From NCBI GenBank assembly GCA_905178155.1, contig CAJINV010000003.1, forward strand, positions 4,956,830 to 5,020,829: a DNA stretch of 64,000 nt, written 5' to 3'. Position 1 is the stretch's first letter; each line of letters begins with the position of its first letter. The position numbers were made by a program, and so were the translations under genes. The notes beneath the pieces are model-generated. The model had not been told where the DNA came from, did not search any database, and saw only the letters and a program-made list of their open reading frames with translations. Source of the DNA: Amoebophrya sp. A120. Its lineage: Eukaryota; Protista; Dinoflagellata. Of this stretch, positions 29,890-59,161 are shown piece after piece.

Positions 29890-32800
29890 TCAGGCATTGA
29901 GCAGCCCCCACTTGCGTCGGTAGCTGTGAAACGCAGCCAGCACATCCCGCAGGTGCGGGACAACATCCTGCCCGCGTCGGTCCTCCCCGGTTAACAGTGG
30001 TGCGCGCTGCTTTGTGCCGCCGGGCGCGTGCTGCATGGTGACCGCCTGTATCAACTGTAAAAGTGTCTGGGTCTGGAAGAATTCATGTTTGTCATGCTTG
30101 TCTGGCATGACTCTGAAATCTGTCATGCACGTTACCCAAGAGCTCCGTTTTTCTATGATGCAGAAGCGCAGTTTGTCATGCAGAATAGGCAACACCTAGG
30201 AGCTCAGAAACTTGTCATGCTGAGCCAGCATCTGTAGCCTCATCATGAGACGCCACCCAGCATCACAAGTTTCCAGACCCAGACATTTTTACTTTTGATA
30301 GCCTGCAGGACCTGCATGGCATTCTGTGCCTTTTCCATCAACAGCCGGCGGTTGCGATCGATGACCAGCAGACTGACGGTATGCAAGAAAAAAACTGTGT
30401 GAGTGTAACTCTGTGATGCAGAAAGTGGAAAACTATTACACTTGTCATGCTGGATCTGCGTCATAGGCTACTTTCATACGTGTTTTCACGTACTAGCTGC
30501 GCATGACAGGTTTTGCCTGTAATGCAAAACGGATTTGTGATTCTGTTTTTCCTACAAAGTTACACTTACACAGTTTTTTTCCTGGATAGACGGTTTCGTG
30601 CACCAAATCGAGCTGCAGGAACAGCACCCCGGTGTTCTGGAACAAATCATAGGTCACCTTGCGCGCCTTGCAGAAGCTGAAGATCTGCGAGTGCGTGCAG
30701 CGATCCAAGCCCGGCACCTCGCACGTGAGCACGACCAGCGCCACTCGCTCATTCGCGGCGTGGTCGGTTTTGTGGTAGCCTGGGGCGTGCGGCGCCAGGT
30801 ACAGGCGTCCGTCGTCGCCCAGCTGACACTGCCCAATGAACTGCAGCGCGGCAAAAGCGGAAGCAGCGTCCGTGATCCTGACGTCCACATCCACAACCCA
30901 GAACCGGTACGGAAAACACACGTTGCGCATCCTGTTGGTTGACCAACGATATTTCTAGTAAAGCTACAGCTCGTTTAGGTGGAGATGAGCACTTGAAAAC
31001 GAAAGACAACAAAACAAGACGGACATCACGACCAAAGGATCAAGTCCAAGCCAGGCTGTTATTTCTGTATATTACCCTGCAACGGTGCACGGAAGCACGA
31101 CATTCTCCCGAAACTCATCTTCGGTTTTTTCTTGCAACAGCTTGCGCGCCTGCACGGCGGCCTCTGGATCGAAGGGGGTTCCCGGGGGTTCCGGCGATTT
31201 GAATGGCGCCAGAAACTCCCCCGTTTGACCGGGGTCAAGTGGCCTTCGCTCTTCGGGCTCGAAGTCCTTGTTCTCGAAGCATACCAGATCCACCGAGGCG
31301 TGACCAAGCATGTCCTTCGCGGCTAAAACACGACCTGGTGACAACGACCATGTTAATGTTGTGAACAGCTTCCGTTTATCACCGGCGAAATCAAAGTAGC
31401 TCGCGCATCAAAGGGTCACGCGATTGAAAGATGAAAAACAAGAGGTTTCTTGGAGTCTGTCGCTTAGCAAGTAGGTACCTGTGCTCTGTGCGAAGGCCTC
31501 ACAGACGGGGAGCGGCACCTGATCGGGACTTTGCAGTGGCAGGAGGCACGCGACTGGCTCGAAGTTCGAGCTGAAAATGTATTCCGAGGTCGCGAGCAGC
31601 TGGGTGCGCTTTTCCGGTAACACCTGAAAATGCACGGTGGGAAAGCTGAGCACCTCGCCGGGAACTGCCTGTATTATGCCGCCCCGCTTGCAGAATTCTG
31701 GGATGAAATCAGCCAGCTCGCTGGGGTACATGCGACCACCGCCGCAAAGCAGAGCTTTCTTGGGAAACGCACGCGCAACCACGTCGCGGGCCATTCGGAT
31801 TAGAAGATCCCGTAACTCGGTACTAACTGGCCCGGCGCTGCTCACACGATACAAGCCCGCCACACGGTCAACGGTCACGTCACTCGTTCTTTTACCTGGT
31901 GAGATAGATCGATAGTACAAATGATATCGATTCCGACTGACAGAAAAATCAATGTTCCGCGAAATAAAACTTCGTCCAATCAACACCTTCTGCGGTTGCC
32001 GAGTGCAGGAAGCTTTCCATGGCCCGATGTTGCAGTTCGGCAATGCTCTTGCGCACGTTTGTGTCCACATGGAAGATGGCGGATCCCTTGCCGCGGAACT
32101 CGTCGTCAATCTTAAAAATCCATTTTGGCACGGTCGGGTGCTCGTAAAGCTGGACGCCAAACTGATGGTACAGCTCTTCCTCGTCGTAGAGGTCTACGCT
32201 GGTTGGCGGGTGCGGTACCTGCGCCAGAGTCACCAGGCGCTGCATGGCGCTCTTTGTTCCGAGATAGTCCACGTTTTTCGGGTTTGCACCATACAGGGGA
32301 ACGTTGAGCTGTGCGGACAACTGCAACTCGGCGAACGTGACGCCGTGTCCCGGGATGAGAACGCTGCGCTCCTCCCGTCCGCGGATGAGAACTTTTTTTT
32401 TTTGTTCGTCGGAATCCTCTTTTTCTCATGATCATATAGATACTCACAAATTGCAAGAAATAATAATTCTTCTACGTAAAACTAGAGCCAAATCGATGAT
32501 CAGCGACATTTTTAACAGGCCAACAGTTGAGTCGTTACCGCGCAATCGGTTCATCGCTCTGCGGGAGAGCAGCAAGCAGTGCGCGAGCGTCATGTGGGCG
32601 GGGATCGCGGGGCTGTCGAGCTTTTCCGGCACCAAAATTTGCAGACGGCCTTGCGGATTCTGGATGCCGCGGTACTCCATGACCTTCGCCATGTACTCCA
32701 ACAGGTCCTCGTGCAGCGGCTTGGAGCACACCAACACCACGTCCGGTGGCGGCTCGTCATTTTTTGGGCCGCAGTACCCCAACCGAAACAGCCGCGAGAT

Positions 32801-35800
32801 TTGTGCGTTCTGCACGCTGGGAAACGAGTGAATACACGCGCGCCGAAACTCCGGCACCGAGAGGGACAACAGGTGGATCTCGAGCCGTCGGACCGTGCGG
32901 GCGGCCTGCGCAGAACTGCTGAACTTCGACCGCAGCCGCGTGAACCGCTTTACCTCCTCCTCGCGCACCAAATTAATCGCCTTCTTGGTTTCCACGAGGT
33001 TCTGGCAGCTCACCCAGGCAACCTGGATCGTTTTCGCGGCCCGGTGGAACTTCAGAAGCAGCGCCATTTTCAGTTTGCACTGAAACATCTGCCACCCGCC
33101 CCAGATGCACTCCGCCGCGAGCTCGCGTCGCAGAGGCCCCCGAAACCGCAAACCCGGTATTTCGTGCTCGAGGAACGGCAGCTCCTCCAGGTTCTTCACG
33201 CACGTGCCCACAATTTGCGCCTCCGAGAAGTTGCGGCGGTCGCGGTTCCCGAGGGCGAAAATCACGTCGATCATCTTACTAACGTCGATGATCGCCAGGG
33301 GCGCTTTCTTCAACTTTCGGCACAGCAGCGTAAACACGTCCAGCAGCTGCGGCCAGTTGTTGCGCTGATTCTCCTTCAGGTCGGCGAGGTTCTGGAAAAT
33401 GTTGCCGTATCGGATGCACACGTATCCCTCGATCTCCTCCCGGGAGGGCACGTGGTGCAGTCCGTAGCGCGCCAGAATTTCGCGGCGCGCGAGGTCTTCC
33501 GCCTCGTGCTGCAAAGGATCGTCCTGTTCCTGCCGCAGCAGGTCTCGCCTACTACTACTGGAGGACGTGCCGTGCTTGCGGTGTCGGCCTTTCCTCGCCT
33601 CCCCGGCCACTCCAAACGACGTGTTGGGTCTTGGCGCGTCGGCGTCCAGCGGAACCAGTGCCGTCGAAGATGAACTGGGCGCGTTCTGTCCTTCGGGCGG
33701 TCGCCCATGCGGGATGCCGTGGGGGTCGGCAGCGAGATCGGCGCCTCCTTGACCACTGCGTGAGGCATGCACCGAAAGATAGGATTGCAGAACCGACGGA
33801 GCGGACGCTCCATCTGAACCGGCTGTTGGTCCTGCGTGGGACGTGCTGGTCCTTTCTCCAGGATGATCTGCGGCCGCACTTCCGAGGACGCCCCCGCCCT
33901 GTTCGTTCTCGTAATACAAGATCCTTTGCTTGGGTTGCTCACCGGTGGGTTTCGGACTCTTGTTGTCGAGCGTCTGGTCTTCGGGGATGTTCTCGAGCGC
34001 TCGCGGCAGCTGCGCCGCACTGGTCGACGCGTGTATCTGTAGGCGGGAAAACGCGGCGGGGTGCTCCACGGGATTGAAGTTGCCGAGCACCTGGGTGCGG
34101 AAGTAGCTCACCGAGTATTCGGCCGACGGCGCGTCGTCGTCCTCAGCGAAGGAGTGGCTCTTCTCGTCCTCCACGTTCTTCTTGGAGGACCACAAGACCC
34201 GCCTTACCCAGGGGTCGACGGCTAACGTCTCGCGCGCGATGATGGTGTTCGAGGACCGTTCGATTGTGTACGCCTCCTTCAACACCAGCAAGTTGTTGCT
34301 CACCAGCGGAAACACCAGCGGCGGCGGCTGCGGCTGGTGGATCTCGTCCATCTCCAGGCTGCGCTCCTCCTCCTTGGCGGACGATGCCGTCAGTCGCTGG
34401 AGCAGGTCCGCACTCAGCAGCTCCTCCCACACCGCCACGTCGGCCGGGTCCGTGGTCGTGCCGCCGCTGGTCTCTACGTAGTAGTAGATTTCCTTGGCAA
34501 TCCGGTTGGCCTGCTTGTCGATGCTGAAGATCTCGCGCTGGAGCAGGCGGTCCTTCCTCTTGTCCACGGTGAAAAGCTCCTTCGACAACAGGTCCTGCGA
34601 GTTGCGATCGATGTGGAACACCTCCTTCACCAGACGGTCCTCGTATCAAATGCAAATATGTCTGGGTCTGGGAGAATGCTAAATTTCTCATGCATATTTT
34701 CCATGCCCCATGAGGTCTGGAATGCAGGACCTAGCATGACAGGTTTTGCGAAGTCTCTGCCATGCCTATCCTGCATGACAAACTGCCTCTAAACTTGTTC
34801 AAAAGTGGACAGCTTTTGGTAATCACGCAACACAAGTTTTTGTACGATCCAGACTTAGCATGACAAGTTCGCGTCCTTCCAGACCCAGACATATTTGCAA
34901 TGCATACCTCGGTCTCCGACGCAATCACCTCCTTCTTCACTGCGTCGTGGCTCATGTGACTGCTGCTCGACGTACTTGCGGCAGGAGCTGCCCGCTGTTG
35001 TCCCGTGGACGACGAGCCGGAAAACATGCCCTCCTCCCCGGTTATGAAGGTGAAGTCTCCCGGGTCGTGGTCCATCCCACCAGACGAGGCTGCACCAGCT
35101 CCGGGGCCACCTGATGTGTGTACAGTTTCATGTATCCATCTGCAAAAGGCCGTCCGAACAACATTCTCGTGATCTACTTATCGCGCAGTTTTTAGCATGA
35201 ACGAAAGACCGACAGCACGTATGCAAAAGAACAAAGCATGTGTAGCTCCTCGCAAAGAATTCTTAAAACCTCCTTTCCCTTGCAACCGCGCCATTGCCTC
35301 TATACTTTCGTCTCTGAAAAGCCGCGTCTCATCGGGGCTGGGGCTCCGCAAGACAATAGCGTGGTTGAGGCTCGCCTTTTCCTCCTCGGACATAATCGGT
35401 GGCGCAGGACTTGGGGCACTACGAGGTATTCTGGGCAACAAGTCCGTGAGCGGCACAAGCACATCACACTCGCCTGATTGATTTTTCACTCGCTTTTGTC
35501 GACGCGATACCTAACAGGCGGCAGCGAAGTGCGTGACTTTTATTCCCGGGCGAAAAAGATGCAGATAATTATAAATGTCTCTAGCGAGCTACAAGTACTT
35601 TTTACCATGACTGTTGATGTAGCTGCGCTGTCCTGCGATTGCACTCCTGCTATTCCCCCGCGATGGCGGCTTGACGGGGCAGGGTACCACTGGCGTGTGG
35701 TCCAGTTTGACCATGGCCGTGGGTAGGTTCACCGCAGTTGCTCCTTTCTGCGCCAGCCGGTCGTGCGGAGCGTACATGCGCGATCGCTTTTGCTTCACCA

Positions 35801-36883: not shown

Positions 36884-37432
36884 TGGGAGGAGATCGCCAC
36901 TCCCACGAGGTGGCTACTCTGCTACATGGTCCTACCCCCAGGAGCCGCCCCCTTCAGCGGTTCATTCCCCATCTACCCTTACGCTCTCACAGGTTGCGCT
37001 CCGAAAACGACGTAAAGACGAGGTCACGAAAAAATTATCGTACCGAAAAATGATACGACGCCACAAAAAAAGTGGTATAGAAAGAACTGCATGTTTGATA
37101 AAGCAGACGAAGAGACTCTCAGCAACCAAGCCCAAAAATAAAAAAGGAAACCCTGCAGCCTTTGAAAAGTTGCTCTCGTGTCCGCGCTCAGGGTCTCTCG
37201 CAACCCAAGGTCAAGACAGCACACAGGTCTAACATACGAGTCGGTCGTGTAGAAAAGCCCTTGCAATCCGGTTCTGTCGCCGTCAATCCAAAGAGAGACT
37301 ACGACTTTCGGTATGTCGCGCTCGCGTCTCAATTGAAACTGAAAATAGGAATACATCTTTGCACATACTAAGCGATGGAGATTTGTACATATGAACATGT
37401 TGCAAAAAGGAAACAGCATGGCGCTGTTTTTC

Positions 37433-39583
37433 TCATGATGTCTGTGCCAGAAAATCTACAAGGGCGGCTTCAATGGCATCATCCACATTGTAATTCTTGT
37501 CTTTGAAAATGCGCCACAGCTCTGCTTCATTCGCAAGCGTTACCACTTTCTGAGGGTTTTCCGGAAGGCAGTCCTGCAGCTGCGTATGGAAGTCCTGGAA
37601 AGCCCCAAGATGCGGATTCTCTGCTTCAACATTCTGCTGCTGCGCTACGCCTCCTCCAGTTGCGCCGTTTGAAAGCGAAATACCGCCTCCGGCACTCAGT
37701 AGCTTGCGGACCTGGCTGAGGTTCAGCTGAGCCCCGCTGCCGGATTGTCCTCCGCCTGGTCCTGGTGCGGGCACGACTAAATTGTAGTGCTCCCCCCCTA
37801 TGTAGGCCAGAAGTACGCAGGTCCCCGCAGATTTTTTTCTTGAACTCGCCAACGACTGCTCCCGCTTCGTTCTCAGCTCGGCGGCCCTACTAGCTGCGGC
37901 GGCACGCTTTTTTGCTGCTTGATGCAGCGTTTCCTTCTTCTCAGTTGCGAGAGGTCGCGCATCGCCAACTTTTACCGCTTCTTTGGTTTGTCCTTCTTCA
38001 GTTGTAACCCCCCGTATTTGTGATGTGGCATCTTCTTCGCCACTTGCTGCGGACTCCACGTTGCCCCCGAGCTCTTCGAAAGAAACGATGTGCAAATCGG
38101 AATCTTCTTGTTCGGAACGAACAGCAGCTTCGTCGTTTTCAACAAAAACCTCCTTTGGCGTACTGCCACCTGGCGTCTGCCCTTCGTGTGGCGTCTCGAC
38201 GTGGTGAGTTGGGCACTCGATCTCGTAGAACGTGAACGAATATTCATCAGAGATGCTGCCCGCGGTGCTGCCTCCAGGAGCATTTTTCCGCGGGGTTGCG
38301 GCCGTCTCCCCCGCCGTACTGCGCTGAAAAATGAGTACGTCGACCGCAAAGTACCGACACAGAGCCAGAATCTCGAGCTGTCCGGCCCAAACGCCCTCCT
38401 CGCGCATGTTCGCCACGTAGTGCGCGTAGCTGCCGTCCGTCTATCGAAAGGAAAAATCCCCCCTCCCCATATCGAAAACGAAATTTGTGATGCTGTATTT
38501 GAGGTCACAAAACGACTTGTCATGCTAGAAGGCCAAGAGCCGCAGTCGTGGCCTCGTTTGCAGGCAATTTGTCATGCTGTTTCCCGCTCTCAGCTGCCTC
38601 CTATCATGCTGAAGATGCAAGGCTTGACCACGGCACCCAGCACTACAGTCCGTATCTTTTCCCGTGTAGCATGACAGAGCTGATTTGTGACAACAAATCT
38701 GCATCACAGATTTCCGTTTTGATATGGGGAGGGGGAATTTTCCTTTTGATACCGTCTCTTCGTCGAGGAACCACCGATACTCTTCCTCATGGGCGAGGAG
38801 CGTGTCGCAGCAGAAATTCCTGCAATCGCCGTGGAACACTGCGGCATTTCTGAAAACGTGCTGCGCGAAGGAGCGGAACAGGCAGTTGCCGTCTTATCAA
38901 ATGTAAAAATGTCTCGGTCTGGAAGAATGCGCGATTTGTCATGCAGCTTTTCCATGACCCATGAGGTCTGGAATGCAGGACCTAGCATGACAGATTCTCT
39001 GAGGTCTCTATCATGCCTTTCCTGCATGAAAAACTCCATCTCAACTTGGTCAAAAGTGGACACCTTTTGGTACTCACGCAACACAGATTTTTGCATCATT
39101 CAGATTTAGCATGACAAGTTGGATTCTTCCAGAAGCAGACATTTTTACACTTGATACGTCTTCCGCCTGTCCGATCATCTGCAGGCCGCGGTCGCCCAGG
39201 TAGGCTGTATCAAATGTAAAAATGTCTGGGTCTGGAAGATTCTGACACTTGTGATGCACGTTTTGCATGAGCCATGATGTCTGTGATGCATACCCTAGGA
39301 ATACAGATTTCTTGAGGGCTTCTTGATGCCTATTCCGCATGACAAATGCCTTCTCAGCGTAGCAAAAATTGCATTCCCGTTGGTAATCATGCAATACAGA
39401 TTTTTTTGGAATCCAAATGCAGCATCACAAGTTGCATTCTTCCAGACCCAGACATTTTTACATTTGATAGGCTGACAAAGCGCGCAACTCCGCCTCAGAC
39501 GCGGTCTCGCCGCGCTTCCGGCGCTGTCGATTTTCCTTGCGTTGTTTACGTGATCGCCCATTCTGCTGCCTGCCTCCACCCAT
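37433..39583 (-). CDS. OTU-family deubiquitinase (OTUD3-like) with C-terminal CUE/UBA-like helices, 4 exons
   Basis: After removing three introners: AEDGNCLFRS (catalytic Cys motif), WAGQLEILAL and GEHYNLV (catalytic His). Confidence 0.9.
38442..38751. mobile_element. Family-C introner (310 bp), TSD CCGTC
   Basis: Long (~50 bp) TIR tatcgaaaggaaaaatccccctccccatatc... / ...gatatggggagggggaattttccttttgata; exact TSD; joins LDEET-DGSYAH. Confidence 0.93.
38895..39156. mobile_element. Family-A introner (262 bp), TSD CGTCT
   Basis: TIRs and exact TSD; interrupts the OTU motif AED-GNCLFRS. Confidence 0.95.
39208..39469. mobile_element. Family-A introner (262 bp), TSD GGCTG
   Basis: Perfect ~32-bp TIR and exact TSD; joins RALSA-YLGDRG. 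Confidence 0.95.
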
Positions 39584-40210
39584 ACTGTGCGGGTTTATGA
39601 ATGTTGTATCCCTTGTTCTATTGGTACTTCCTTCATGGGAGCAGGGGGACACAGTAGCGAAACAGACGGAACGATGTGTACACTGTGTGGAAAATGACTT
39701 GCTACTTCCTGGACGTTCTTCTACAACGTAGATCTAGAGTCAATCGCAGCTCTCCAAGCTGTTCGGGAGTTGATCTTCATCGAGCATCGCTGCTGCATTT
39801 TGTGCGAGTCAGACCTTTGAACTCGTCACTATCAGTGGTGATAGGGATCATGATGGATCATTGCACCGAATGAACTGCGACAAAATTTCTACTGAACTAG
39901 TGACTCGGCTTTTCGCGATAGACCAGCCGGCGACATCCCCTTTCTGAAAAACCCACTTGTTTTTTATTTCTTGTTCGTCCCGTCATTTGATGACAAATCG
40001 CGTATATGACAAAGTGCGTACGATTTCAGTATCTTCGATAATCTAGAAAACATATGGCTTATTTCCTTGGTAATTATTGACCAAACCTGCACGCGAGCGA
40101 TCACGTGTGCGTGTGCTATTGATAGTTGCGAAATGAGATGACCAAGAGATGAGTGAGCAGTGTGCTATACTTACCACTTTAACGTTCCGACCTCAGGAGC
40201 GCCCGGCCGA

Positions 40211-43200: not shown

Positions 43201-43246
43201 CCTCCTCGTATTCCTCCTCCTCATATTCCTCCCCACTGGTCGCCAT
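40211..43246 (-). CDS. Multi-exon coiled-coil protein with MPHOSPH9/enkurin-like C-terminal motif
   Basis: Series of coiled-coil exon ORFs. The last exon ELNQERTALEATLMKYPTNSAGRTLTDRKNKQQAEARLLDVEKELSLIRGKLR resembles the MPHOSPH9/enkurin C-terminus. Confidence 0.55.
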
Positions 43247-44663: not shown

Positions 44664-47288
44664 TTACGATCGGTACAGCACCCCCGTGGATTCCAGTCGC
44701 TGGGAGTAGTCCCGCTCCTTCCTGCGTTCCTTCTCATCGGCTTCGAACCGCTTTGCCGCGGCGGTCGGGGTGAGCTGCTGCGACGCCTTGCCCGGGGAAT
44801 CTCCGGCTTGCTTGGCGTACTGGAACTTGGACGGCACGGTGATCCAGTCGAACAGACGGTCGTAGCTGAAGTTTTCCCGGTAGAACACGTCCTTCATCAG
44901 CCTTCGCAGGTAGCTGTAGTCCGGGGTATCGGTGAACCGCAAATTTCGGCAGTACTGCAGGTAGTATTTGAATTCCTGCGGAAGCGGACGGGAAAACTTC
45001 ATGCCCGTTGCGAGCCAGTAGTTTTCCGCATCGGACGTGTTGGTCGAACAGGTGGAGTTGAAATCTGCCGTGAAAATTCGTTAAAAATCTTCGGGTTTTT
45101 TCAGCTACAAAGAACGAGAAGGTCGTGAGCAACGTAAACGTTACCTTCGACATACTACTATAGTTGCTACCGTCGATAAGTATCCTAGAAAAGCCTTTCT
45201 CCTATAGCATTCGTAAAACACATCAAGTACCGCGCTTCTCCCCTGCTTGATTGGCCGCACCAGTCCCGATGAGGTCGTCGATGCTGATGTCCTGCTTCAG
45301 TGCCATAATTTTCTGGTACTTCTCCTTCTTCGCGCCCTTCTGGCCCTGCCACGGAAGAGACCCGCGCAGGAAATACATCCAGACGTTATTACATTGAAAA
45401 GTGCCCCCCCCCTGAAATTGCAAAAATTTGTGATGCGAAGTTTCCAAATGAAAACTTTTTCTCATGCATGAAAGGAGTATGAATCTTTCTGATGCAGAGT
45501 CTAGGCCTGTAGCGTATCGTTTGCATGACAAGCGCCGATCTTGCTGGGGTCTTTTGCAGTACAAATTTTTGCTATTCACGATTGGAACCCTGTGATGCTG
45601 ATAGATGCAAGAGGGCGAATGTTTCATTTGGAAAGGTTTGCAATACAAATGCCCCCAAGTTCGGGGGTGGGGGCATTTTTCATTGTAATAGACGTAGCAC
45701 AAACTCTCCAGGTCGTCGCGACGGCTCGGCTCCACACCCAAGTGGGTGTTCACACTCACGTATCGTGCCGTCCCGGTCAAATTTTTACCTGCGCGTGTCA
45801 TAATTCCAACTAACATCGATAATGTCCCGCACAAAAATATAAAGAGAGCCGTGCAATCCAACATGAAAAATCTTGTGGTGTTTATGCTGTGAACCAACAT
45901 CAAGTAGTACAACTTACTACTAGTTTAGTACTATGCAGTTGCAAATCCGACGTGGAAAAAATAAAATTTACCCGTCTTCATCGGGATATGCTCGTGCGTT
46001 TTTGGGCAGCGGTACTTTTTCGCCAACCCGAAGTCGATCAGGTAAATGAGGTCGTTGTGGTACACGAAATTGTCGGGTTTGATGTCGTATCAAATGTAAA
46101 AATGTCTAGGTCTGGAAGATTCTGAGACTTGTCATGCAGGTTTTCCATGACCCATGATGTCGGTGATGCATGCCCTAGCATCACAGATTCTTTGAGGGCA
46201 TCTTAATGCCTAGTCCGCATGACAAATGTCCTCTCTGCGTAGCAAAAATTGCATTCTCTTTGCTGCTCATGCAATACAAGTTTTTTTGGAATCCAAATGC
46301 AGCATCACAAGTTGCAACCTTCCAGACCCAGACATTTTTGCATTTGATACGTCGCGGTGGATGTAGTTTTTCTTGTGCATGTACTCCATGCGGTCAATCA
46401 TTTGCTCGGCCAACAACAGCACGGTCTTCAGCGACAACCGCCTTCGATAGTGGATGTCCTGTGTAAAAACGTCCCCGCACCAAATGTGTCAGGTCCAAGA
46501 ACAAAATGAAGCACACTTTGTAGTCTTTGCCTTTGCAATGGCGGCAGATGGCTTGGCGCGCCTATGCAACATGACCCCAAATTTGTCATGCAAGTGTCCC
46601 TGTTCCGGATGTCTCTCATGCGCGATTCCATGACAACGCCACTTTGAATTTGTCGTGACCCGGCTTTTGATGTAACCCAGCACGATTAGAGTTGTCACGG
46701 AGCTCAAAAACCTTCTGAATTTGCTTACCGCAGATTTATTCCCTTCTTGACTACGGGGACGTTTTTACTCCGGATAGTATGTGAAAACCTCTTCCAGCGA
46801 CGGCCCGAGAAGATCCAACACCAAGACGTTCCACTGCCCCTCGATCCCGTGCCAGTGAAGTGTCGGAATACCTGAGCATTGATTTAAAATCTTGTTCACA
46901 GTAACTACCTACTAATTCCGCATTAGTTTAAGTTTTAGTTTTTACTTTCGATATCGATATTTAGAAGGCCAAGGCTTATGTATTTCATGCGAAGAAGACG
47001 ATTCGTATTTTACTATACATCCAAACACAACGCAAAAGCTCGGCAAAGGCCCCTCCAACAAACGAAACCTCTTCCGCCCGCAAGCAGCTTGTAAATCTTC
47101 GCTTCATAGTGGATTTGTGGATGCTTTGATGCCCGAGGTTCGGTCTTTACTGCAACGTGCTGGTGTCGATTCAAGTCATACGCCACATAAATCTCGCCAA
47201 AACTACCCGCGCCAATCTTCTTTTCGATCCGAAACCGCTGGCTGACAACAGTTCCCAGCTCTATGCTTGGCGTGGTAGTGCTACTCAT
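44664..47288 (-). CDS. CK1: Casein kinase 1
   Basis: [80 protein letters not shown] and FDW. Contains three introners. Confidence 0.96.
45387..45690. mobile_element. Family-D introner (304 bp), TSD GACGT
   Basis: TIRs tattacattgaaaagtgcccc / ggggcatttttcattgtaata; exact TSD; joins [12 protein letters not shown]. Confidence 0.93.
46088..46349. mobile_element. Family-A introner (262 bp) in the CK1 catalytic loop
   Basis: TIRs; flanks tgtcg/cgtcg (4/5); joins HRD-IKPDNF. Internally close to the copy at 39208. Confidence 0.93.
46455..46776. mobile_element. Family-E introner (322 bp), TSD degraded
   Basis: TIR core gtaaaaacgtccccg / cggggacgtttttac; removing 327 nt restores VFTYY...RLSLKT. Confidence 0.8.
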
Positions 47289-48353
47289 CCTTCGTAATTA
47301 TCGTGACCCGCTACGGCGTGCAAAAGTGTGTATCCCTGCCTCCGAAACCCAAGTGGAACGTTATCGTGGGACAGGTGGGGATCGTTATTGTGTCTCACGG
47401 CTGCAGACTTAGTCCGACTCCGAGCGTGTCCAGTAGATGATTGGCAAGTGTTGTCGGTTTTGCTCGTACTGGAAAAAGTGATAAAGCAACCTCCCCCAAA
47501 GTTACGCTATCTCCTCTTGATGTGCGCCAAAACCTTGCGTTCTCGACCACCCGCAGCCATTATGCTTCTGATTTTGTCGCTGATTGTGCTTCGGAAATTC
47601 GAAGTAAAAAAAAAGCGAATGAATGTTGACATTCACTCAACGAACTGTGACAGTGTGCGAGAAGTTGTCAATGTTTGAAATTTTTCCTTCAACCATCGTA
47701 CTTAAGCAAATCCATGTCCTCTTCGAGGTCGATTTTCGTTAATTTGCGACGAACTTACCGTCCACGAATAATACGTACGAGCAGATTTGTTACGAACAGC
47801 TCACCAATGACGACCCCCATGCTTCAGGAACCGAATGATTCTGTCCCGTGAAGAAGACCGGCATATGTACAACGATGCGCGAAGAGTCTTTCTACTGTCT
47901 CATGTTCTGTCGGAGGAGCGCCTTCGCATGCTTTGACCACCGTGACGAACTTACTTTTAGTCTGTACGTTGTGTTGCGCGCCAAACCATGAACATGGGCT
48001 AGGCAATTGAAGCTCGATCACCAAAGGTGGGAGCTACGGCTTGTATGTTCGACGAGGATGCGTGTCTCTATGACTTTTGTAAGTTGTGAATGTGGCTGTA
48101 GGGGCCTGGGCCTTCACTAGCGAAAAAGCTAATCTTCGCAAGCATGATATTCACCAGCAATAACAGCTTGAAACCACACATCGTATTCTCGGTGGCAGTT
48201 GATAGATTTACCACAACCTTGATGACGAATCCATCAAACCCCCACTAGGATAATTTTTTGTCTTTTCTTGCTCATGCTCAATTATACAATTTATGAAAAT
48301 GAAGTAGAAACTACTGTTGTAACGGCGAGGAGCATGTAATGCTGTTTGATGTG

Positions 48354-48887
48354 TCACTGAATACTCAGCAAAAGGTGCCTGAAGTAGCCCTGGCCGTTCC
48401 CGGCGTTATTCACGCCATTACCTCCACAACTGGCCTCCCGTGATCTTAGCTGAAACCTGACGCCGCTCGGGAAGATGGTGCCTTTCGCAAGGTCTGAAAA
48501 CGACGGGCGATACTTCAGTTCAGCCAGCGGCGCCGTGGTTGAAAAAGCGGAAAAATCGTGGTACTTCTGGTGAAGTTCCGCCTTGACATACTCGATTAGG
48601 CCGTCTTCCAGCAAAGGTTCTACTTCGGATGCCCAGAATTTTTTATCGGAGCTGCATTGATTCGGACCTGCTGTCAACTCGAACAGATACGTCAGCGTGA
48701 ATCTCGTTGCTAGGGCGTCGTAGCTCGAGTAGAGGGGCGCATGCTTCCACCAGGGCTGCATTCCCGCGGCCGTGGCGGCTACACCTACTCCGTGCCGGTC
48801 CAGCTCGATGAAAAGGGCTACGAGTCGGGTTGCTCGCGCCGCGGTAGCAAGTAGACTACACCTTGTACGGATAGTAGTCATTGCCAA
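48354..48887 (-). CDS. Hypothetical protein exon (possible signal peptide)
   Basis: 177-aa ORF co-oriented with its neighbours; no domain recognised; probably continues by splicing. Confidence 0.35.
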   Translation of the reverse strand: MAMTTIRTRCSLLATAARATRLVALFIELDRHGVGVAATAAGMQPWWKHAPLYSSYDALATRFTLTYLFELTAGPNQCSSDKKFWASEVEPLLEDGLIEYVKAELHQKYHDFSAFSTTAPLAELKYRPSFSDLAKGTIFPSGVRFQLRSREASCGGNGVNNAGNGQGYFRHLLLSIQ

Positions 48888-49944
48888 GGAGGAAATTGGT
48901 TATCGAAAGAATAAAAAGCAAACCAAAATCAGGAAGTGATCGTAAAGAAAACCACCTAGCGGGGGTGCTAGGGCAGCTGGGGACTACATAAGGGGAATTT
49001 ATTGTTGAAAAAGCAATACGACTTCTTTCTCTTGTAACTTGTCAGTTTAGCGAAGCGGGTTCCGAGAGCTGTCGTCTCTTTGTCCAAAGATTTTTTTAAT
49101 ATTCATTGGCCCAAAAACATCGCGGGAAATGTAGGAGTGGTGGCTGCAGACATCATGATCATACGACAAACACCTCGTCGCGCTTTTCCATTTTAGTGGA
49201 CGAACCGAAAATCAAAATTGACGCAGAAAGCAACACCGAACAAACATGAGGAATACGGCCCTCTTCTAGTGCATCCGAATATTCTTCAAGCCCACAAGCA
49301 CAAGTTCGACTTGCGTCTTATACAAATCACTTCGACCGACGTCCGTGGCGGCATACCGCCATTATTTCGTCGTGTGAACGAAGCTACCTGATTCAGAGAT
49401 GACCGACCACACCTTTAGCGATACTGGTTGATTCCGAGACCGACGAAGCTACCTGACTACGAGACTTCGAAACCTTCGCACCGATGTTGCGATACATACC
49501 GCAGATTGGACTAAGATCCAACAGGCAGAACGCAGTTTACCATGATAAAAACTCGCATCGCAATCGAAGGTCCGCACTCATTAGATGCGCGTCCTGTTGT
49601 ATGTGAAACAAATGTGATTTTGCAGAAAAGTCGGGTTTCAGAGAGATGTGACACGAAGATGTCGAGCGAACTTCTCGCCGGCTCAGGGGATGAGCCCTCG
49701 TTCGGATTCCAAAGAGGATGGTGAAAAGTCGCACAAACCTTGTTGCACGTCGTGTCCTATTAGAAAAAAGAAATGCACTCTTGAAGATGGCAAACTTGGT
49801 GGAGTACAAACAGAAGCGCAACGCCGACATCGTAATGGTGCATTAATTTCGGTGACGCCGCAAGCATTCTCAAAAACAAAAAGGCATTGGTAGAACTTGT
49901 TCTTTGTTGTCAAGCCACATGAAGATAGATACAGAGAGACTATC

Positions 49945-52348
49945 TTAGCTTTGATCGCAGATTTGGTCGATGAGCGCAAGAACGGCCTTTCCCAGGGCTT
50001 ATGGAGGGGAAATGGATGATATCGGAGCCCGACAACCACCCAACTATTCGCAGGCGCTGCTTTTTGTTTTTGTTTTTTCTTTTCTAGACCGGAAAATAAT
50101 GCAAATGCCAGCGTCGTGCCCCTAACAGCGAGACCACGCGTTCCCTCATGCTGCATTCTCGCGAGACACGACAACCATTAGTATCCGACGGCGACACTTT
50201 CAGTGTTGCTTGTACCATGACAAAAAATATGCCGAAACTAGAAGTCTAATTGGGCCGCCGCCGCCAGAGCTCGGAAGGATCAACCGTGTGTCCCCATCCA
50301 TAACCCTTCGTCGGTTCCCTGGCAGGTCAGCGGGTAGCAGGGCATCGGATCGTCGATGGCTGTGAGATTCGACATTTGGATCACGCAGCCGCTAACCCGA
50401 TGCAGTTTGGCCAGGTCGAGCAGCTGTAATCGCGATTGGGGCACTAGAAAATCCAGATTCGCCGTTGTTAAGTTGCGCAGTTCCCGGATAGCTGACACGA
50501 TGCCCTCTGGTCTACCCCAAAACTCCATCAAGAAAGGCAGTACTCCCAGTGTGCCATCCGAGTTGTACCTGCAAATACACGCCCAGTGTCGTATATTGGC
50601 ACGCAGTGTAGCACAGACCCAGAGGAACTGAATGCTCTCGAGGACCAAACACGCAAAACATGCGCACCGCACCGCAGCGCGATTCGGCTTCAAGATCAAA
50701 AGTACACTCATCATCCATCATGAATGATAGATTCCTTATCCGCGCTAGTTGTATTTGAAATGACGTTAAAAATACACTTACCACTCGAAAGCCCGTACGC
50801 TGACATTGTGGCGGTCTTCGCATTATCAAATGCAAAAGTGTCTGGGTCTGGGAGATTGCAACTTGTCATGGTAAATCTGAAGCATGCAAAAAACTGTGTT
50901 GCATGAGTGCCAAAAGCTGTCCACTTTTGACCAAGTTGGAACGGAGTTTCTCATGCAGAACAGGCATACCAGAGACCTCGCAGAGTCTGTCATGCTAAGT
51001 CCCGCATTTCAGACCTCATGGGTTATGGAAAAGCTGCATGACAAGTCTACACTCTTCCAGACCCAGACATTTTTACATTTGATACGTATTCTGGTACTTT
51101 CGCTCCGTCTTCCGAAAAAATTCGTTTACCCTCTGCGATTGGGAGCAGGAGCCGCACCACCTGGCGTTGTTGATTTTGCATGATATTATATCCCTGAACC
51201 ACACATCAGGCCATCGAGGGAAAAGCACAAGACCAAGAAAAACAAAGTCCGCTACGAGAATTCAACCAAAACAGAATCATTTTTTTTTTTTAACAATGAA
51301 TTACCTGCCTCGCTACGACGTTTGAAGCGCCGAGTCCCTGGGAATCCTGATACAGAAAGAATTCGCAGATAACTCCAACCCGCAAGCTTTTCCTCTGCGC
51401 CCCAACGATGTCATCAGCATGGCAGAAAACTCGTCCTGGTGGCAGAAGAATTGGTAACATTTCTTATGTTATTGATTCGCTGCTGCGAATGCGAATCTCA
51501 ACATCTACACAAGGATCGCAGAAAACAACCAGCCGCTTTCAACTGACGCACTTTCCTTTTTCTCATCATTGCAGGTCTCAGGCATAAAAACTGCAATTCT
51601 TGCCGTTTCTCTTATCATCATTACATCAGAAGTAGAACCACGTGCAGAAATCGATAGCACCTTACCCTGATGTCGGTCGAGCTCCGGATGGTCGATGGGC
51701 TCCAGTGACTCAATTATCGCCAAGAAAAACCCATCCCTCACTTACAGCATCAACAGTTCCCCTTTAGTTGAAACGAGGTTTTGCAACGCAAGTCCAACGC
51801 TTTGTTTTAATGAAGCATGTGCACCGAAGGGCACAATGATCCGGAACACGGGCATGATCGCTAGATGAGCTACTGCTGATCCGTTACAACTATAGAACGT
51901 GAAACATACAAATTTCTAGAGCTGGAAACAACATAAGAGATCCAACTCTGCGACATGACAAAAGAAAACTAAAAAACGTTTTTGCGTCTATAAATTTCTG
52001 CCGAACCAGTAAGTACTTGGGTCTTGGTAAGGGACTGCTTTTTTCCCGCGATATCAATCCAGCCGTAGTTATTCTTCCATGCGTTTTATCAAGTGCAAAC
52101 GTGCCCTGTTCGACGTGCACACATGTCAGTATCTCCCCACGTGGCTGTCGTTGTCTTTTTGAATCATGCCTATTTTCTCTGAATGAGAAACAACATTCAG
52201 ATTCATCTTTGGTCCTCGCGAAACTGCATGCAATAGTTGCGCCGGTGTGTCCTCGTACTTCCGACACATTTGCAGTTGATAAGACGACTCGTCCCGCGAA
52301 AGGCACGTCGCTCAGTTGATATCGCGGCTCTGCGTAGGTGTAGGTCAT
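49945..52348 (-). CDS. Dinoflagellate-type cold-shock domain plus KH-like protein, multi-exon
   Basis: Manual exon joining: PRYQLSDVPFAGRV...IESLEPIDHPELDRHQGRVFCHADDIVG...VICEFFLYQDSQGLGASNV (CSD-like), then VVRLLLP...MEFWGRPEGIVSAIREL...CQGTDEALGKAVLALID (KH-like). Confidence 0.6.
50000..50302. mobile_element. Decayed introner (short TIR tatggagggga / tccccatccata)
   Basis: Removing 303+5 nt (GG...AG register) gives GTDE-ALGKAV in frame; TSD only partly conserved. Confidence 0.5.
50824..51084. mobile_element. Family-A introner (261 bp), opposite internal orientation
   Basis: TIRs; flanks cgcat/cgtat. Internal sequence is reverse-complement-similar to the copies at 34644 and 38895. Joins VPEY-EDRHNV. 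Confidence 0.9.
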
Positions 52349-53496
52349 CTTATTCAATTTTTCTGAACGCGATCGAGGTCCTTGTATCAAGCTCGAGGAG
52401 CCTTCAAAAATGTGCGTCAAACGTCAGAGACAAAAACCAGCGCGAGATCTTCTGAACAGACATACAGATGAGGCCGCTTTGAACGAAAGGAAGATCTTCG
52501 CTTTCAAGCATTTGAGGAAGAAATAGACCCGCTTTGCTTCGATTTTCAGCTCTTCAGCAGTACGACGAACAATAGAAAAAATTCGGCAGGGAAAAATGAC
52601 CGCCTAGTCGAATCCTCGTGGCACTTGCGTCCAAAGGACGTTGCGACAGTTTGATTTTCACTTAACATCGCCATGTAATATACTACATCCAACGTTGGCA
52701 AAGTCCAGGAGCCTGAAACTAACTGCAAATTGTGCAGTCCGACTCAAAGTTGAGATGAAAATGAGGCCAAAATCATACAAATTGAAGGCTTTCCACGTCT
52801 TAAAAAATTGCTTTTTCAGGTGATGAATCTTCGTGGTATAAAATCTTTTTACTCATATGGTCGCGCATTACCTTCCGGCCAGACTCGCAGTTTCTGTATT
52901 TCCTTTTCCAGGAGGATAATAAGTACAATCCGAGCCTTGACATCGGCGGAGCGACAGGAAGAGTTCGATTGTGTGCAACTTTGCTGAAGACGACGATTTT
53001 CTATCGCTCAAGACTATTACTTCTCCGGATCCGCCTCTCGCCGGGCATTTTGGACGTGCTGCTCTCCAGAAAGAACCTTGTAAGGAATACAACTGGGACT
53101 ACAATACTTCTGTCGTGTCACTTCACAGTTCAAAGATTCGCGGTCCAGCTACGAGCGCACGAAAAGAAATCTATACTAATACAAATGCATGATTCGTTTT
53201 TGCATCAAATACTGCAAAGAATGACGTCGACATTACTTAAAACCCTTGTTCGCGGACATTAAATATTTCTATTTTTTGCGAGTATCACAAACTGTTTCTA
53301 CACAAACGCATCTATCAGATAAGAGACAGTAGTAGTACAGGGACGACGAGGACATAGTTGCACGTTACAGAATTTGGTGCTCGCATCTTCTCGCGTGCGA
53401 GTTACTGTTTCTGAGACATTACAGAAACATCGGTTGAGAGATGCTGCAGTTGACAGACCTACGGAACAAGACCACAGGCTGACGCAGGTTTTTGGC

Positions 53497-56400
53497 TCAG
53501 GTGAGACCGGAGAGTACGAGCCAGGAGAGGTCCGGCGGTGGGTCGGAGCGGGTGAGTAGCTCGTGTATGGCGTGGATTTCGCTGTCTGCCTCGGACGTCG
53601 TGAGCTCTACGTCCACGCCGTTCTCGGAGGTGACCAGGGCCTGCGACCAGAGCCGCAGCAGGGTCAATTCGGCCAGCAATTCCTCGATCGTCGGCTCCGG
53701 TAGCAACTTGACCGTTTTGCAGCGCACCCGCAAAAAATGCCCACTATGCGCGTTGATGCCCTCGTACCGGCCGGACTGCATCCAAATCTTCAGAGGCGAG
53801 TTGGCGTTGCCGGCAGCCACGCGCGCGGCAGCTTCCTGGTTCAAGTGGGCCGTGTTACCTAAGTCAACCGCGGCGGTGGGGGAATGACCGCCGCTTTCTG
53901 GTAAAAGTTCCTCCTGCGTGGTCAAACTGGAGGCTGTTCTTGCTGCGCCTTGCGAATGATCAACAACGAGACCACTTCCCTCCTGCTCCCGACCATCCTG
54001 TTTCATCCCGGCCGCCCCACCAACGAGCCCTTGCTTCTCCTCCGAGCTCGCGGTGTTGAGTAGGGAACTGTTATTCATGTCTATCTTAGAGTTATTGTTG
54101 TCCGCAGACGAAGAGGTGGGGGAAGATGTTGACAGCAGGTTCGGTAGACTACACGACGAATCTGGGACGACACCAGCAGCTCCGGTCGCTGTGCCTGAAG
54201 TTGTGCTGCCAGAAGGGCAAGCGGCGAAATTGTTTCCATCAACTTGCTCCACGGAGCTGGCCACATCTGACACGGAAGAGGTAATCGTCGCGGTCAGGGG
54301 GACGACGCCGGCGGTCGAGCTGCTATTCGTATCGCGGAGAAAAAAAGCCAGCGTCATGCCAGAGATATTGGTGCTGCAAAACGAGATGAAAGAACACGCA
54401 TGAAATTATCTCTGCCTGCTCTCCTAGCTTAAAACCCTGGCTGCGGGCCTGGCCCGATCGCGGATGCCTTTGCTCAGATCTGCTTTTGCACTTCGCAACT
54501 GAGTATGATTATGCACTGTAGCTTTTTTCCGTTTCCTATTTCACATACCGCTCGTAGTAGTCATTGATCGCGGTTTGCGTGCCGATCCGCTCGAAGTCTG
54601 AATCGCCGATGGAAATCACGTTTTTCCAGGTCTGCCCAGGGTACTGCAGGTACAGCTGTCCCACGCCGTCCGCGATTGCCAGGGCCTTCATGCACACGTA
54701 CCGCTCCTCGGGCGAGGAGTTGTTTTCCACCGGCACCATTTTCCCGTACTCCGAGGCGTACAGCATCGGGATTTGCAGTTCCTCAAACACGCACTTGTGC
54801 AGGCGCGGGGTCAGATGCTTCGAGCTCATCTCCACCCAGGGCGCCTTGGCCAGCGTGACCAGCAGCACGCGGCCCTGGACCACGAGGTTGCGGAGGAGTA
54901 AAATGGCCTCCTGCTCCAGGTGCCGCAACTTCGCCTTCAACTGCTCGCACCGCGGGCCCTCCTCCACCTGCCACTCGAGCGGGTACTTGTAGCTCAGACC
55001 CACGTCGCCGCGCACCCAGGTGGTCGGGTACAGCGTATCGTCCCAGTCCAAAACGATCACGGTTTGCTCCCGGCTCGCGAACTCCAGGTAGCTCTCCCGC
55101 CGCTTCTGCCGGGACGAGGGGCTCAGCTGCTGCATCTTCGCGAGCAGCATCTCGACCGACATGCGCCGGTGCGCCAACGGATCCACCGACCGCCCCATCG
55201 TCTTGCGCCGCCCGCCGTCGGCGCGGGAAAAGAACTGGTCCTCCTCGGAAAACGAAGAGCTGGAGGACGAACACGAGCTGCTGCTGGAACTACTGGAACA
55301 GCTGCCGCTTTTCTTCGCAGCTCCGGGTGCTCCACCAGCTTTGACGTCGAGCAACTGTGTCGTGTCGGAAGATTTTTGCATTTCCCGTGATCCATCTGCG
55401 GTGAAAGTACTACTCGTGCCGTTGTCAACATGGAGGATCCCCCCCGCGCTGTTGTTATTAACGGGTCCTACTAAAGAACCGCTGCTCGGAAACGCACTGG
55501 AGGACTGCGAGGACCGTGCCTGGTCCCCGTCGGAAGTGAAGGCGTCGTCCGGGGTTTCGGCCGGGTGAATCACGCTCAACCGGGTCCGCTGGTTCGGGTT
55601 CGGCAGCTGCGGCTTGTGGTCGGACAAATCCTCTTCGACCGCGAATTTGCGCAACTTCTTCATCCAGGCGCGCCGCAGGATGGCGGACTCTGCGGCAAAC
55701 AAGAAGCTCCCGGCCAATGGGTGCACCAGGCAGAAAGCGGCGCGCTCGTCGAGGAGCCCCGCGGCGGCGACCACGTGCTTCTCGGGGATTTCAATTTTGT
55801 ACTGACTCACGTCAATCGCAACATCCGCCGGGATGCCGCTGCTCCGGGGGCTGCACCCGTCGAGCAGGCTGAGCTCCAGATACAAATGCAGGGCCCCACT
55901 CGGATCCAGCACCCCGCGATACTCTTTCGGGGCGCCGTGCGCGCTACTGGTGGTGGCAGCTTGGTCGTTACTGGAGGAACTCGCGGCGCCGGAGGGCGGG
56001 GCACTACTGCCGTCGGCGGCGGGGGGTGCCACCATCGTCAGTAGACCGACATAATTCCCGTCCCGCTGCTTCGAGGCCATCTTGAGCAGTTTCGAGCTCT
56101 TACGCTCCGGGGTCGCCTCGGCGACCACCCGCGCGGGAAGGTCGCGCGCGTCGAAAGACCGGAGCCACTCCTCCGCTGGAGAAGGGACGCGGCAATCGAA
56201 AAGGTGCAGGTACCCGTCCTCCGGGTGATAGCACAAAGACTCCCGGACGAGCTCCAACCGCAACTGCGTCGCACTCAGCTCTCGGTCGTCGAACCCGAAG
56301 TCCGCGGCCGGGAGATAAAAAGACTCTTCATCGCCGCTTCCCTTGCGCAGCGGCACGGCGGTATCGCTCGCTTCGGGGGGATCTGCAGTGTAGTATTCGG

Positions 56401-59161
56401 AGCTGCACAGCTTCAACTTTTTACCCCTTTGTTTAAAAATGTTTTGTTCCGTATGTACTGGTGACCGGTGCTCAAGCACGACATTTAGTACAACCTTTTT
56501 ACACTGTGATACTCTTCCTTCTCTCCTCTTCTTGATCATCAGTAAACAGCACAGTGGACGAACAATGTTTACAAATGTGTACCAACGCCGGGCTTCTGCG
56601 AATGCGAATGCGGATCCAGCAACCGTAAATTGCCATCTCGGTAAACGAGGCGCGCGGAGGAGGCGGCCGCGGGGTCGTGGTTCGGTTCGTCTTCTTCGCA
56701 GTGTAGGTCGTGTATGGTGAGCAAAAGCGTCCCCATCCCGGAGTCAAGATGGCGAATGTGCTACACAAATCAACCAGCTTTGCCCGTTGCGCATGACAAA
56801 TTTGGACTCGCAATGTAGTGGTGTTTAGCTAGTGAAGCAGCATCACAGATCTAGCATAGCATGCGGATGCGCGCATCACAAATCGCAAAACACCAGTAGA
56901 AACTGCTTTTCATGGGTCTCCGCATGAGAAACATTTTCAGCATGCAGATTTGCATTACAACTCTGGGGTGGGGACGTTTTTACAAATGATATCGTGAAAC
57001 AGGAGTTCATGCAGCCCGCCCGCGGCAGTCAGACGATCCTCCGGCTCCCATCGCAGCAGCCTTATGGACGCGTCAGGATCGAAATCAACAAAATCGAAAT
57101 AATTTGTGACGCATAACATCGATACCAGTTGGGGCCTCAGTTTCCAATGACAAATTTCGGGAGCACCAAAATCCAGCCTGTCATACTGTTTGGGCAAATA
57201 AGACTGCACCTCTGGCAGCGCATCGACTTCCCCTATATAGGCTTACAATCGGTCTCATTTGCCTGCTCCCCAACACGGGCGATGCGTGCCCTATATTTTA
57301 TGCATTGCAAATTTTTCGACTTTGTCGATTTCGATTCTGACACTCCCATAAGCCTGTTCAGCAGAGTAACTGCATCACGCGCCATCTCGTCGCTTTCCTT
57401 GTGAACGTACTCCCATTCAAAGACAGATTCTGGCTTCTGCGGTCCCACTTTCAACTCTCGACTGCAACGAGCTAGAAACTCGCAACACTTTTCGCTCGGG
57501 ATGTCAGCCGTCCAATTCTGCGGAGGCGCGCCCAAAAGTTTCACGATACTGCGAAGCACATCCTGTTTTAGTTTTATCATATGCAAAATTTTTTGTACTG
57601 AGTTGTTGCATTTTCGCAATCCCATGCTCGGTGACTGAAATCGATCTTTTTTGGCGGTTTCGTCTCGAACGCGGAAACAAACTGCTTTCTTTTTTTCCTC
57701 TCCAGCGAAAAGATGAAAGCGCAAAAAATATACTTTTCCTATTCACAATACCGTGGTGCTATTTCCGAAGAAGCACACGGTGCCATCTGCGATGAGCTCC
57801 GCCCAGATGCAGCCTAAGCTCCACATGTCCAACGAGGGCGAACAGCGGGCCTTTCCGCACAAAGCTTCCGGCGGTCGGTAGTACCGAGAACACACGTACT
57901 GAGTCATATTCGGCTGCTTCGCAGTAGATGTTGCAACAACGTCGGCCTGCGTAGTTCTGCTCGTTCCCAGAGAGGACGCAGCTTTCGACCCCGGCGGGCA
58001 AACGATCCTCGCCAACCCGAAATCACAGATCTGCAGATCCCACCCCGTGCTGACCAGCAGGTTTTTCGGTTTTAGGTCGCGATGCACCACCCCGGCCGAG
58101 TGGATCCACTTCAGCCCGCGGAGGCACTGGTACATCAGGAAGAGGTGGTGGTTCTGGTCCATTTGCAAGTCCCGGCGGCGGAGCAGGTTGCCCAGGTCCG
58201 TGTCCACCCGGTCCGTGACTAAATACACGTGCGCAAAGTCGGCGCCGGACCGCGCGAAGTAGACCGCGTCCGGGTGCAGCACGTTCTCGTGCCCGCGGAG
58301 GTACCGGAGCAGGCGCAGCTCGCGCAGCGTCCGCCGCGCTGTCTGCAGGTGCTCGAACACGTTCTCGATCTTCTTCACAGCCTTGCGGTGGTGCTTGCCC
58401 TTGGAATCCGTCCACGAGGTGGCGTACACCACGCCGTAGGCGCCCGCGCCGAGGATGGGCACGTCGTTGGCGAGGACGTGCGCGGCCGGCAGCTCCACGT
58501 CGGTACTCCCCGGGACGCTGCGGGCGGTGACGGCCGCGTTGCGGAGGGAAAACTCCGCCAGCCAGGCCTCCTCCGGATTCACCGGGGCGGCTTCCGGCTG
58601 CTCGCTGTTCCTGCTGCTGGCGGCGTACCCGCGCGCTGCCGCGGAGAAGCCGGCCAGCGACTGCGAGGAGTTGGCGCTGCCGCCCGTCGCCGCAACCGAT
58701 TCGGGACTCGTTCGCTCCGTCACCTGCGACGACGAGTCCACATCCAGCAGGTTGTTCTGCCGCAATTGCTGGCTGTTGCTCGCAAAGCTCCCGCGCTTGT
58801 TGCGGCTCACGCGCTTGGGGGGCGGCAGTTCCCCATTGGTGTCCGGAAAGTTCTCCTGAATTGCTGTTTTGTGTTTTACGAATTAGACCACCACTTTGTG
58901 GCTGCTACCTGTAGATTGAATTTTGGACACCTTCAGTGAAAGCAGCTCTTTTCTTGTTTTCCAGTTAAGAAGTGTATCACTTCTACACGGCAAAATCAAA
59001 TTAATGTCTACCTGCGATTGGTGGCTGCAGTTGCTTTTCGAGGAGCGACCGGAAAGCTCTGGATCCCAGTTGCTCGTGCACCCCCTGTGCGTACCGCGTC
59101 CATTCAGGTAGTGTGAACGAAGCGGCTTCTCCGTACGCATTGCGACGGAGCTGCAGGCCAT
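53497..59161 (-). CDS. MAP kinase (TQY loop) apparently continuous with a PH domain and a HAD-like (DWDDT) domain
   Basis: GAGAYGVV, AVKKI, RTLRELRLLR, HRDLKPKN, ICDFGLAR, MTQYVCSRYYRPPE and LHCEEDEP. The MAPK tail DFGFDDRELSATQLRLELVRESLCYHPE begins the 54536-56539 ORF, which then carries a PH-like FAAESAILRRAWMKKL and HAD motifs LDWDDTL and SIGDSDFE. Confidence 0.75.
56713..56991. mobile_element. Family-E-like introner (279 bp), TSD TCGTG
   Basis: TIR aaaagcgtccccatcccggagt / actctggggtggggacgttttt; exact TSD; joins LLFH-DLHCEEDEP. Confidence 0.9.
57063..57350. mobile_element. Family-F introner (288 bp), TSD AGCCT, GC-AG register available
   Basis: Imperfect ~55-bp TIR containing gtcagRatcgaaatcRacaaa; exact TSD; joins TLLNR-LLRWEPEDR. 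Confidence 0.92.

Follow-up and report, generated by a model that had tools for sequence, protein, structure and literature searches.

The window analysed here is a stretch of 64,000 nt from the dinoflagellate Amoebophrya sp. A120 (GenBank assembly GCA_905178155.1, contig CAJINV010000003.1, positions 4,956,830 to 5,020,829), whose genes are invaded by introners, i.e., transposons that form introns. The introners are missing from transcript-like assemblies together with one copy of their 5-nt target, and we posit, with an overall probability of about 0.6, that both cuts are measured over a constant distance from the stem predicted for the terminal inverted repeats (TIRs), one base before TAT and four bases after ATA, the bases at the cut itself being likely ignored. 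The original prediction for this locus had held that the target site supplies a 5' donor starting with G, which may be chosen spliceosomally, and that only the 3' site would be set by the geometry of the TIR hairpin. The G-donor bias is a chance effect and the G-donor rule is not real.

Absence of the introners from transcript-like contigs

The region between positions 30044 and 57355 contains 16 or more elements, each 195-339 nt long and all of them inside genes of the minus strand (Table 1). Their ends are TIRs that start with TAT and finish with ATA, and they are flanked by 5-nt direct repeats, the target site duplication (TSD). Removal was followed in the runs X1-X3, which are assembled contigs of one sample whose RNA status was guessed, and in the DNA run X5. 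Among the joints listed for the X1-X3 contigs, 25 comprise 16 ordinary GT-AG introns and nine element joints, and the ordinary introns alternate with introners within the same transcripts. In all nine element joints listed, the element plus exactly 5 nt is gone. None of these 25 joints was present in X5, the contigs of which run uncut through 46327-50848 and 51059-56813. The raw RNA runs X8-X10 gave reads on element fragments only, and no joints were obtained from them.

The elements 38442, 38895, 39208, 46088, 46455, 56713 and 57063 are not among the listed joint rows; their removal is read from frame, protein or length evidence. Joining the RNA joints results in an open frame of 1569 codons (region of element 34644), and conserved casein kinase 1 (CK1), OTU-like and kinase sequence is restored when the elements are taken out. 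The kinase gene with introners 56713 and 57063 is presumably MAPK-like, judging from its motifs. In the middle part of the CK1 transcript, taking out elements 46088 and 46455 together with one ordinary intron accounts for the length exactly (791 = 197+267+327). Of the 16 elements, 14 contain stop codons in every reading frame, and the host genes therefore need element removal.

Register of the cuts

The register k, defined as how many bases of the 5' TSD stay with the exon, is unreadable with a perfect TSD, so that mismatched copies are needed. The joint 49995>50304 is compatible with k=4 only and is the sole junction that fixes k alone. Its intron (50303 to 49996, TT..CC) reads T-TAT…ATA-AGCC, and two alternatives present at this site, a GT that lies one base upstream and a register GG..AG, are unused. 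At 52082>52283, k is either 3 (CT..AA) or 4 (TT..AC), and the GT in the TSD is again unused. The joint 50818>51085 (element 50824) allows k=3-5, and 54325>54540 (element 54330, with an uncertain 5' TIR end) allows k=1-4. Mismatched TSDs, from which the original prediction had suggested reading the register, were available at four RNA-like joints, two of which leave a GT unused.

Five further constraints come from annotated A120 protein junctions. In the window, HRDIK at 46088 and LGL at 24950 each imply k≤4 (0-4), and FTYY at 46455, where no G is available, implies k≥3 (3-5). Related loci were collected in a scan of a metagenome collection with the repeat end (141 loci, L001-L141, 550 kb), and in one of them, L021, TGKG at 3778 implies k≥4 (4 or 5) and EAGVAV at 5305 implies k≥1 (1-5). 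The value k=4 alone satisfies all nine constraints. With independent, uniform registers, agreement of all nine at k=4 would be expected with P=0.0018, and agreement at any one of the six registers with P=0.011. One further locus (L045:5668) has a stop codon at k=0, and a search for a protein spanning the fully informative junction L032:1804 gave no sequence across it.

We infer one register, N-TAT…ATA-NNNN, i.e., one base before TAT and four after ATA, which gives NT donors and free acceptors, the T of the donors being the first base of the TIR. As the four mismatched joints and the five protein junctions share one register only, both ends are likely placed by their distance from the stem. The symmetric stem would then be the signal from which both cuts are measured, and the activity that places the cuts likely ignores the bases found there.

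A number of observations weigh against this register. The four RNA-like joints by themselves give P=0.11 after correction, a single junction determines k on its own, and the X1-X3 contigs stem from one sample with a guessed RNA status. The protein constraints derive from gene models that were built on transcript alignments, and L021 belongs to a close relative (99% identical protein) that may be of another strain. Codon usage at 54 mismatched TSDs resolved no register and leaned slightly in the wrong direction at position 5 (7 vs 4); an AT-asymmetry test on the same TSDs pointed to no register. Folding predicts paired TIR ends in most of the 17 window elements, but in five of these 17 folds (30380, 34644, 46455, 54330 and 56713) the terminal TAT pairs weakly or not at all with ATA, and the terminal triplet is altered in two of the removed elements; an exact ruler starting from the first pair is therefore not shown. 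The legend of Figure 3 in Farhat et al. (2021; PMC7789003) calls the border variable or unknown.

Table 1. Introners of the window. Ranges are given with TSDs and from TIR to TIR; TSD letters are those of the gene (minus) strand. Elements are named in the text by their first TIR coordinate.
Range with TSDs	Strand	TIR to TIR	TSD	Gene	Evidence on removal and register
30044..30305	-	30049-30300	CAGGC x2	IQCH-like (Pfam ATP-grasp_IQCH in exon)	RNA-like joint 30043>30301 = element+5
30375..30593	-	30380-30588	CCGTC x2		joint 30374>30589
34639..34911	-	34644-34906	CGAGG x2		joint 34638>34907; inferred register happens to give GT-AG
38437..38756	-	38442-38751	GACGG x2	OTU-like	RNA-like contig piece ends at 38436; removal restores frame
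38890..39161	-	38895-39156	AGACG x2	OTU-like	removal restores frame
39203..39474	-	39208-39469	CAGCC x2		perfect 20-nt TIR; removal restores frame
45382..45695	-	45387-45690	ACGTC x2	casein kinase 1	joint 45380>45690 in X1, X2, X3, not in X5
46083..46354	-	46088-46349	CGACG/CGACA, mismatched	P0001	annotated HRDIK, at most 4 bases of 5' TSD exonic; transcript length 791=197+267+327
46450..46781	-	46455-46776	5' CATAC (no G), 3' copy TCCAC		3' end ACA, not ATA; annotated FTYY (homologues FTHY, FSHF), at least 3 bases of 5' TSD exonic
49995..50307	-	50000-50302	AGGGT/AGCCC		joint 49995>50304, zero shared bases, in X1, X2, X3; X5 contig 46327-50848 uncut
50819..51089	-	50824-51084	ATACG/ATGCG		joint 50818>51085; 3, 4 or 5 bases of 5' TSD exonic
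51710..52058	-	51715-52053	ATTGA x2		joint 51709>52054
52082..52286	-	52087-52281	CGTCT/AAACG		joint 52082>52283; only CT..AA or TT..AC fit
54325..54543	-	~54330-54538			degenerate; TAG at the 5' end, with the boundary placed to within 1 nt; X1 and X3 have contiguous contig pieces 54325/54540; cut 1-4 nt after ATA
56708..56996	-	56713-56991	CACGA x2	protein kinase, Pkinase domain upstream	removal restores frame
57058..57355	-	57063-57350	AGGCT x2	same kinase gene as 56713	removal restores frame
24945..25241	-	24950-25236	GGGGT/AGGGC	P0006	outside 30044-57355; annotated LGL, at most 4 bases of 5' TSD exonic

Identity and distribution of the elements

The elements are introners of Amoebophrya sp. 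A120, which have already been published (Farhat et al., 2021; PMC7789003), and represent transposon introns of the miniature inverted-repeat transposable element type. Two proteins of the window, P0001 (casein kinase 1) and P0006, match database entries labelled Amoebophrya sp. A120 with 100% identity over the query. The published introners are about 240-260 nt long and have direct repeats at their borders, and their inverted-repeat motif consists of TAT, seven less-conserved nucleotides and at least three As (Farhat et al., 2021, section 11). In our TIR profile of 276 elements, TAT occurs at ≥98% at both ends, a figure that is partly set by the detection filter, and A at positions 11-15 at 73-95%. 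Border repeats of 3-5 nt are described for the A120 introners; here the TSD measures 5 nt in 256 of 364 candidates, a number that includes nested false pairs, with one TSD of 4 nt and none of 6 nt. The elements are also repeated in the genome and absent from transcript-like contigs, as families recur in the window and the related loci, element depth in the DNA run X5 is very high, and joints are found in X1-X3. Several A120 families have been classed as TIR DNA transposons that "co-opt both" or similar, among 19 of the 58 A120 rows (Gozashti, 2025; PMC12130899).

The larger element set was drawn from the related loci. From 443 elements, 389 unique ones were retained, of which 276 lie outside the window and have a confident strand and 222 of these have a perfect TSD; weak strand calls were dropped. 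Strand was called with a self-trained coding model, for which neighbours were concordant in 218 of 224 cases at the threshold used and 11 of 11 confident window calls were correct. Both directions are present in all 11 families tested, and both are removed within the window, where the 50824 copy has the opposite orientation to those at 34644 and 38895 (34644 and 50824 are each removed).

TSD starts are unevenly distributed over the reading frame (105 in phase 2, 56 in phase 1 and 54 in phase 0; n=215 with a confident frame), and at k=4 about half of the introns would lie between codons. The loci L001, L045 and L053 are very densely invaded, with 12, 11 and 8 elements per 6-10 kb and some exons of <60 nt. 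The main introner family also has two heavily degraded copies at 21780-21990 and 22300-22580 of the window, within a long minus-strand gene (20.5-26.3 kb); their ends and TSDs are not fixable and RNA cover is low. Reads of X8 and X10, RNA runs of 2026 with the same species label, fall on 39069-39156 and 30479-30528. They match element-like fragments and none of the window's exons, and related elements are therefore transcribed in another strain or locus.

Apart from the introners, the CK1 gene shows an insertion in the C-lobe at 45064-45380 (about 36 protein letters), which is common to three related sequences and absent in the Galdieria homologue. A GC-rich intergenic tract at 59290-59910 contains inverted repeats as well as short palindromes of the GGGCGCCCC type; it matches locus L047 at 82% over 282 nt and is therefore probably another repeat family. 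A tandem 13-nt repeat (ATTACAATGACTA) extends from 63945 to the window end at 64000.

Alternative explanations for the removal

A structure-reading route of the endonuclease/ligase type is favoured here slightly ahead of a modified spliceosome, the enzyme being the least certain part of our proposal. A route of this kind is also suspected for the nonconventional introns of euglenids. The spliceosome needs defined intron end bases, a branch point and a pyrimidine signal. In the 222 perfect TSDs, no position showed a base preference over background (chi-square p 0.18-0.69), the pair of first and last intron bases at k=4 was unbiased (p=0.34), and AG stood at the 3' cut in 19 of 222 cases under k=4. 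A pyrimidine tract was not found (0.535 vs 0.536), and the branch-point-like CTRAY was not enriched (26 sense vs 30 antisense of 276 elements). Neither a purine preference after the 3' cut (132 of 222, p=0.50) nor enriched complementarity of the TSD ends (47 of 222) was detected in this set, and removed lengths did not favour multiples of three (99/72/105). An endonuclease/ligase is preferred over normal recognition by U1/U2AF, since the outermost base at either end of the intron is unconstrained and folding predicts the 5' end to be part of a stem.

A modified spliceosome could still do the chemistry, with the 5' and 3' sites alike given by the hairpin and the fixed register unchanged, and we consider this a serious possibility, if not the one we would choose. 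A120 has U2, U4, U5 and U6 and most spliceosomal proteins, while no U1 snRNA was detected in it (Farhat et al., 2021; PMC7789003), and noncanonical introns of Fritillaria are said in a review to be spliceosomal. The alternation of introners with ordinary GT-AG introns in the same transcripts also speaks for it; the free intron ends and the lack of a branch-point or pyrimidine signal speak against it. Of similar, tentative standing is the most far-reaching form of our proposal, namely that A120 uses a second, sequence-blind code, N1-TAT[stem]ATA-N4, in which a non-spliceosomal nuclease/ligase takes its measure from the transposon hairpin, that this code arose independently of that of Euglena, and that the published motif diversity is largely an alignment artefact produced by a single fixed geometry.

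It is rather unlikely that the hairpin merely pairs the two TSD copies and fixes the removed length, with a register that wobbles between introns (e.g., 3 or 4 bases). Most constraints do allow two to five registers, and inverted repeats were placed 1-5 nt from the splice sites in the legend of Figure S23 of Farhat et al. (2021). Against such wobble, k≥4 is needed twice (50000 and L021:3778) and k≤4 five times, and sliding of the aligner within perfect TSDs yields the spread seen in print. NT-type donors are indeed reported (Farhat et al., 2021, Table S4; GT 26.5%, AT 18%, GC 5% and GA 5% over six large families in Gozashti, 2025, PMC12130899). We rejected them as support for k=4, as simulated sliding to the best partial GT/AG match gives the same tallies and top pairs. 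Inside perfect 5-nt TSDs, such sliding, scored by a rule that we take to be that of BLAT, reproduces the published top motifs CT-AG, GT-AC, AT-AG, GT-CG and TT-AG. As simulated aligner bias yields the published tables, the tables of NT donors are no help for the register. Much of the published A120 motif diversity may be an alignment artefact.

The rule of a G-starting 5' donor taken from the TSD, with geometry at the 3' site alone, is very improbable. The 11 TSDs with their donor and acceptor pairs on which the original prediction was built are present on the minus (gene) strand, with AG in 3 of 11; this list is correct as far as it goes, and 46455, 50000, 51715, 52087 and 54330 were missed in the same range. 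A G occurs in the 5' TSD of 15 of the 16 window elements, the exception being 46455 (CATAC), and six of the nine register constraints also permit a G donor. Such frequencies are at chance level, given that 86% of the window exon 5-mers contain G (P=0.19 for 11/11; P=0.32 for ≥15/16). Among the 222 sense TSDs, 192 (86.5%) have a G, compared with 85.4% of phase-matched flanking 5-mers (p=0.78), and the other 30 lack it. The difference between sense and antisense (192 vs 174 of 222, p=0.047) corresponds to the excess of G over C in the coding-strand background (85.4% vs 79.4%). A lack of G enrichment over background, which the original prediction itself had named as its refutation, is thus what we found. 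Core dinoflagellates do take GA and GC donors from their TSDs (Roy et al., bioRxiv 10.1101/2020.10.14.339549), but in A120 the available GT is unused at 50000 and 52087 and no G exists at 46455, so that these three junctions contradict the rule unless editing or assembly errors are invoked. Other parts of the prediction held: the acceptor dinucleotide is free, the real junctions make no use of nearby canonical GT-AG pairs, and a 3' site set by geometry relative to the TIR hairpin fits our data. A G-starting donor of the spliceosomal type is not supported; the joints with mismatched TSDs and the protein junctions instead suggest that both ends are likely placed by distance.

Finally, template switching by reverse transcriptase classically arises at a hairpin flanked by short direct repeats, and the joints are known from contigs only, but that they are such switches and no splicing at all is hardly credible in view of the zero shared bases at 49995>50304, the 1569-codon frame and the conserved CK1, OTU-like and kinase sequence that removal restores, and the stops in 14 of 16 elements, which make removal necessary for the genes.

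Comparison with known systems

A hairpin that would join the exon ends was already proposed for the A120 introners by Farhat et al. (2021). In contrast to that description, in which the border is "variable" or "unknown" and many motifs occur, we find a strict 5-nt TSD, and the informative junctions lead to one register of +1/-4. The literature, including two reviews, gave no published statement of a fixed register for Amoebophrya, with subscription papers, figures and some supplements lying outside that search. The elements are known, and a fixed-geometry rule in place of the donor rule is plausible.

The nonconventional introns of Euglena resemble the A120 elements in that GT-AG is missing, direct repeats blur the border and ordinary introns coexist (PMC12501133; PMC11282704). 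In Euglena, paired inverted repeats stand at a fixed distance from both cuts; a like arrangement in A120 may follow from the nine constraints that share k=4, one of which fixes k alone. The Euglena signature, defined genetically, is 5'-N3CDG…CH'GN5-6/R-3', with the slash at the cut (PMC12501133). The A120 elements have TAT/ATA and not CDG/CHG, a spacing of 1 and 4 and not of 3 and 5-6, and no purine preference after the 3' cut; with motif and spacing differing, they are therefore not classed as Euglena-type.

The A120 elements are also similar to the introners of Polarella, Symbiodinium and Aureococcus, where TIR DNA transposons with TSDs make introns and the splice sites are partly derived from the TSD (Roy et al., bioRxiv 10.1101/2020.10.14.339549; Gozashti, 2025; PMC12130899). 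Those introners need a G[TCA] donor and an AG acceptor and have biased TSDs (GHNN, AGGH), whereas the A120 TSDs match the background, and a G[TCA]-AG register of any kind is possible in only 28 of 222. The features of a U2-type donor supplied by the TSD are lacking at both ends in A120, i.e., a 5' GT/GC/GA (TT..CC at one joint, TT..AC or CT..AA at another, no G at 46455) and a 3' AG with biased TSDs.

Significance for Amoebophrya

More than 60% of Amoebophrya introns lack GT-AG, and how they are removed has been an open question since 2021. If true, a fixed +1/-4 register would correct gene models and explain why these transposons can insert anywhere in coding sequence and in either orientation. 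It would also represent a second splicing code measured from structure, beside that of Euglena. Should this code be sequence-blind, insertions in either orientation would vanish from the mRNA without a trace.

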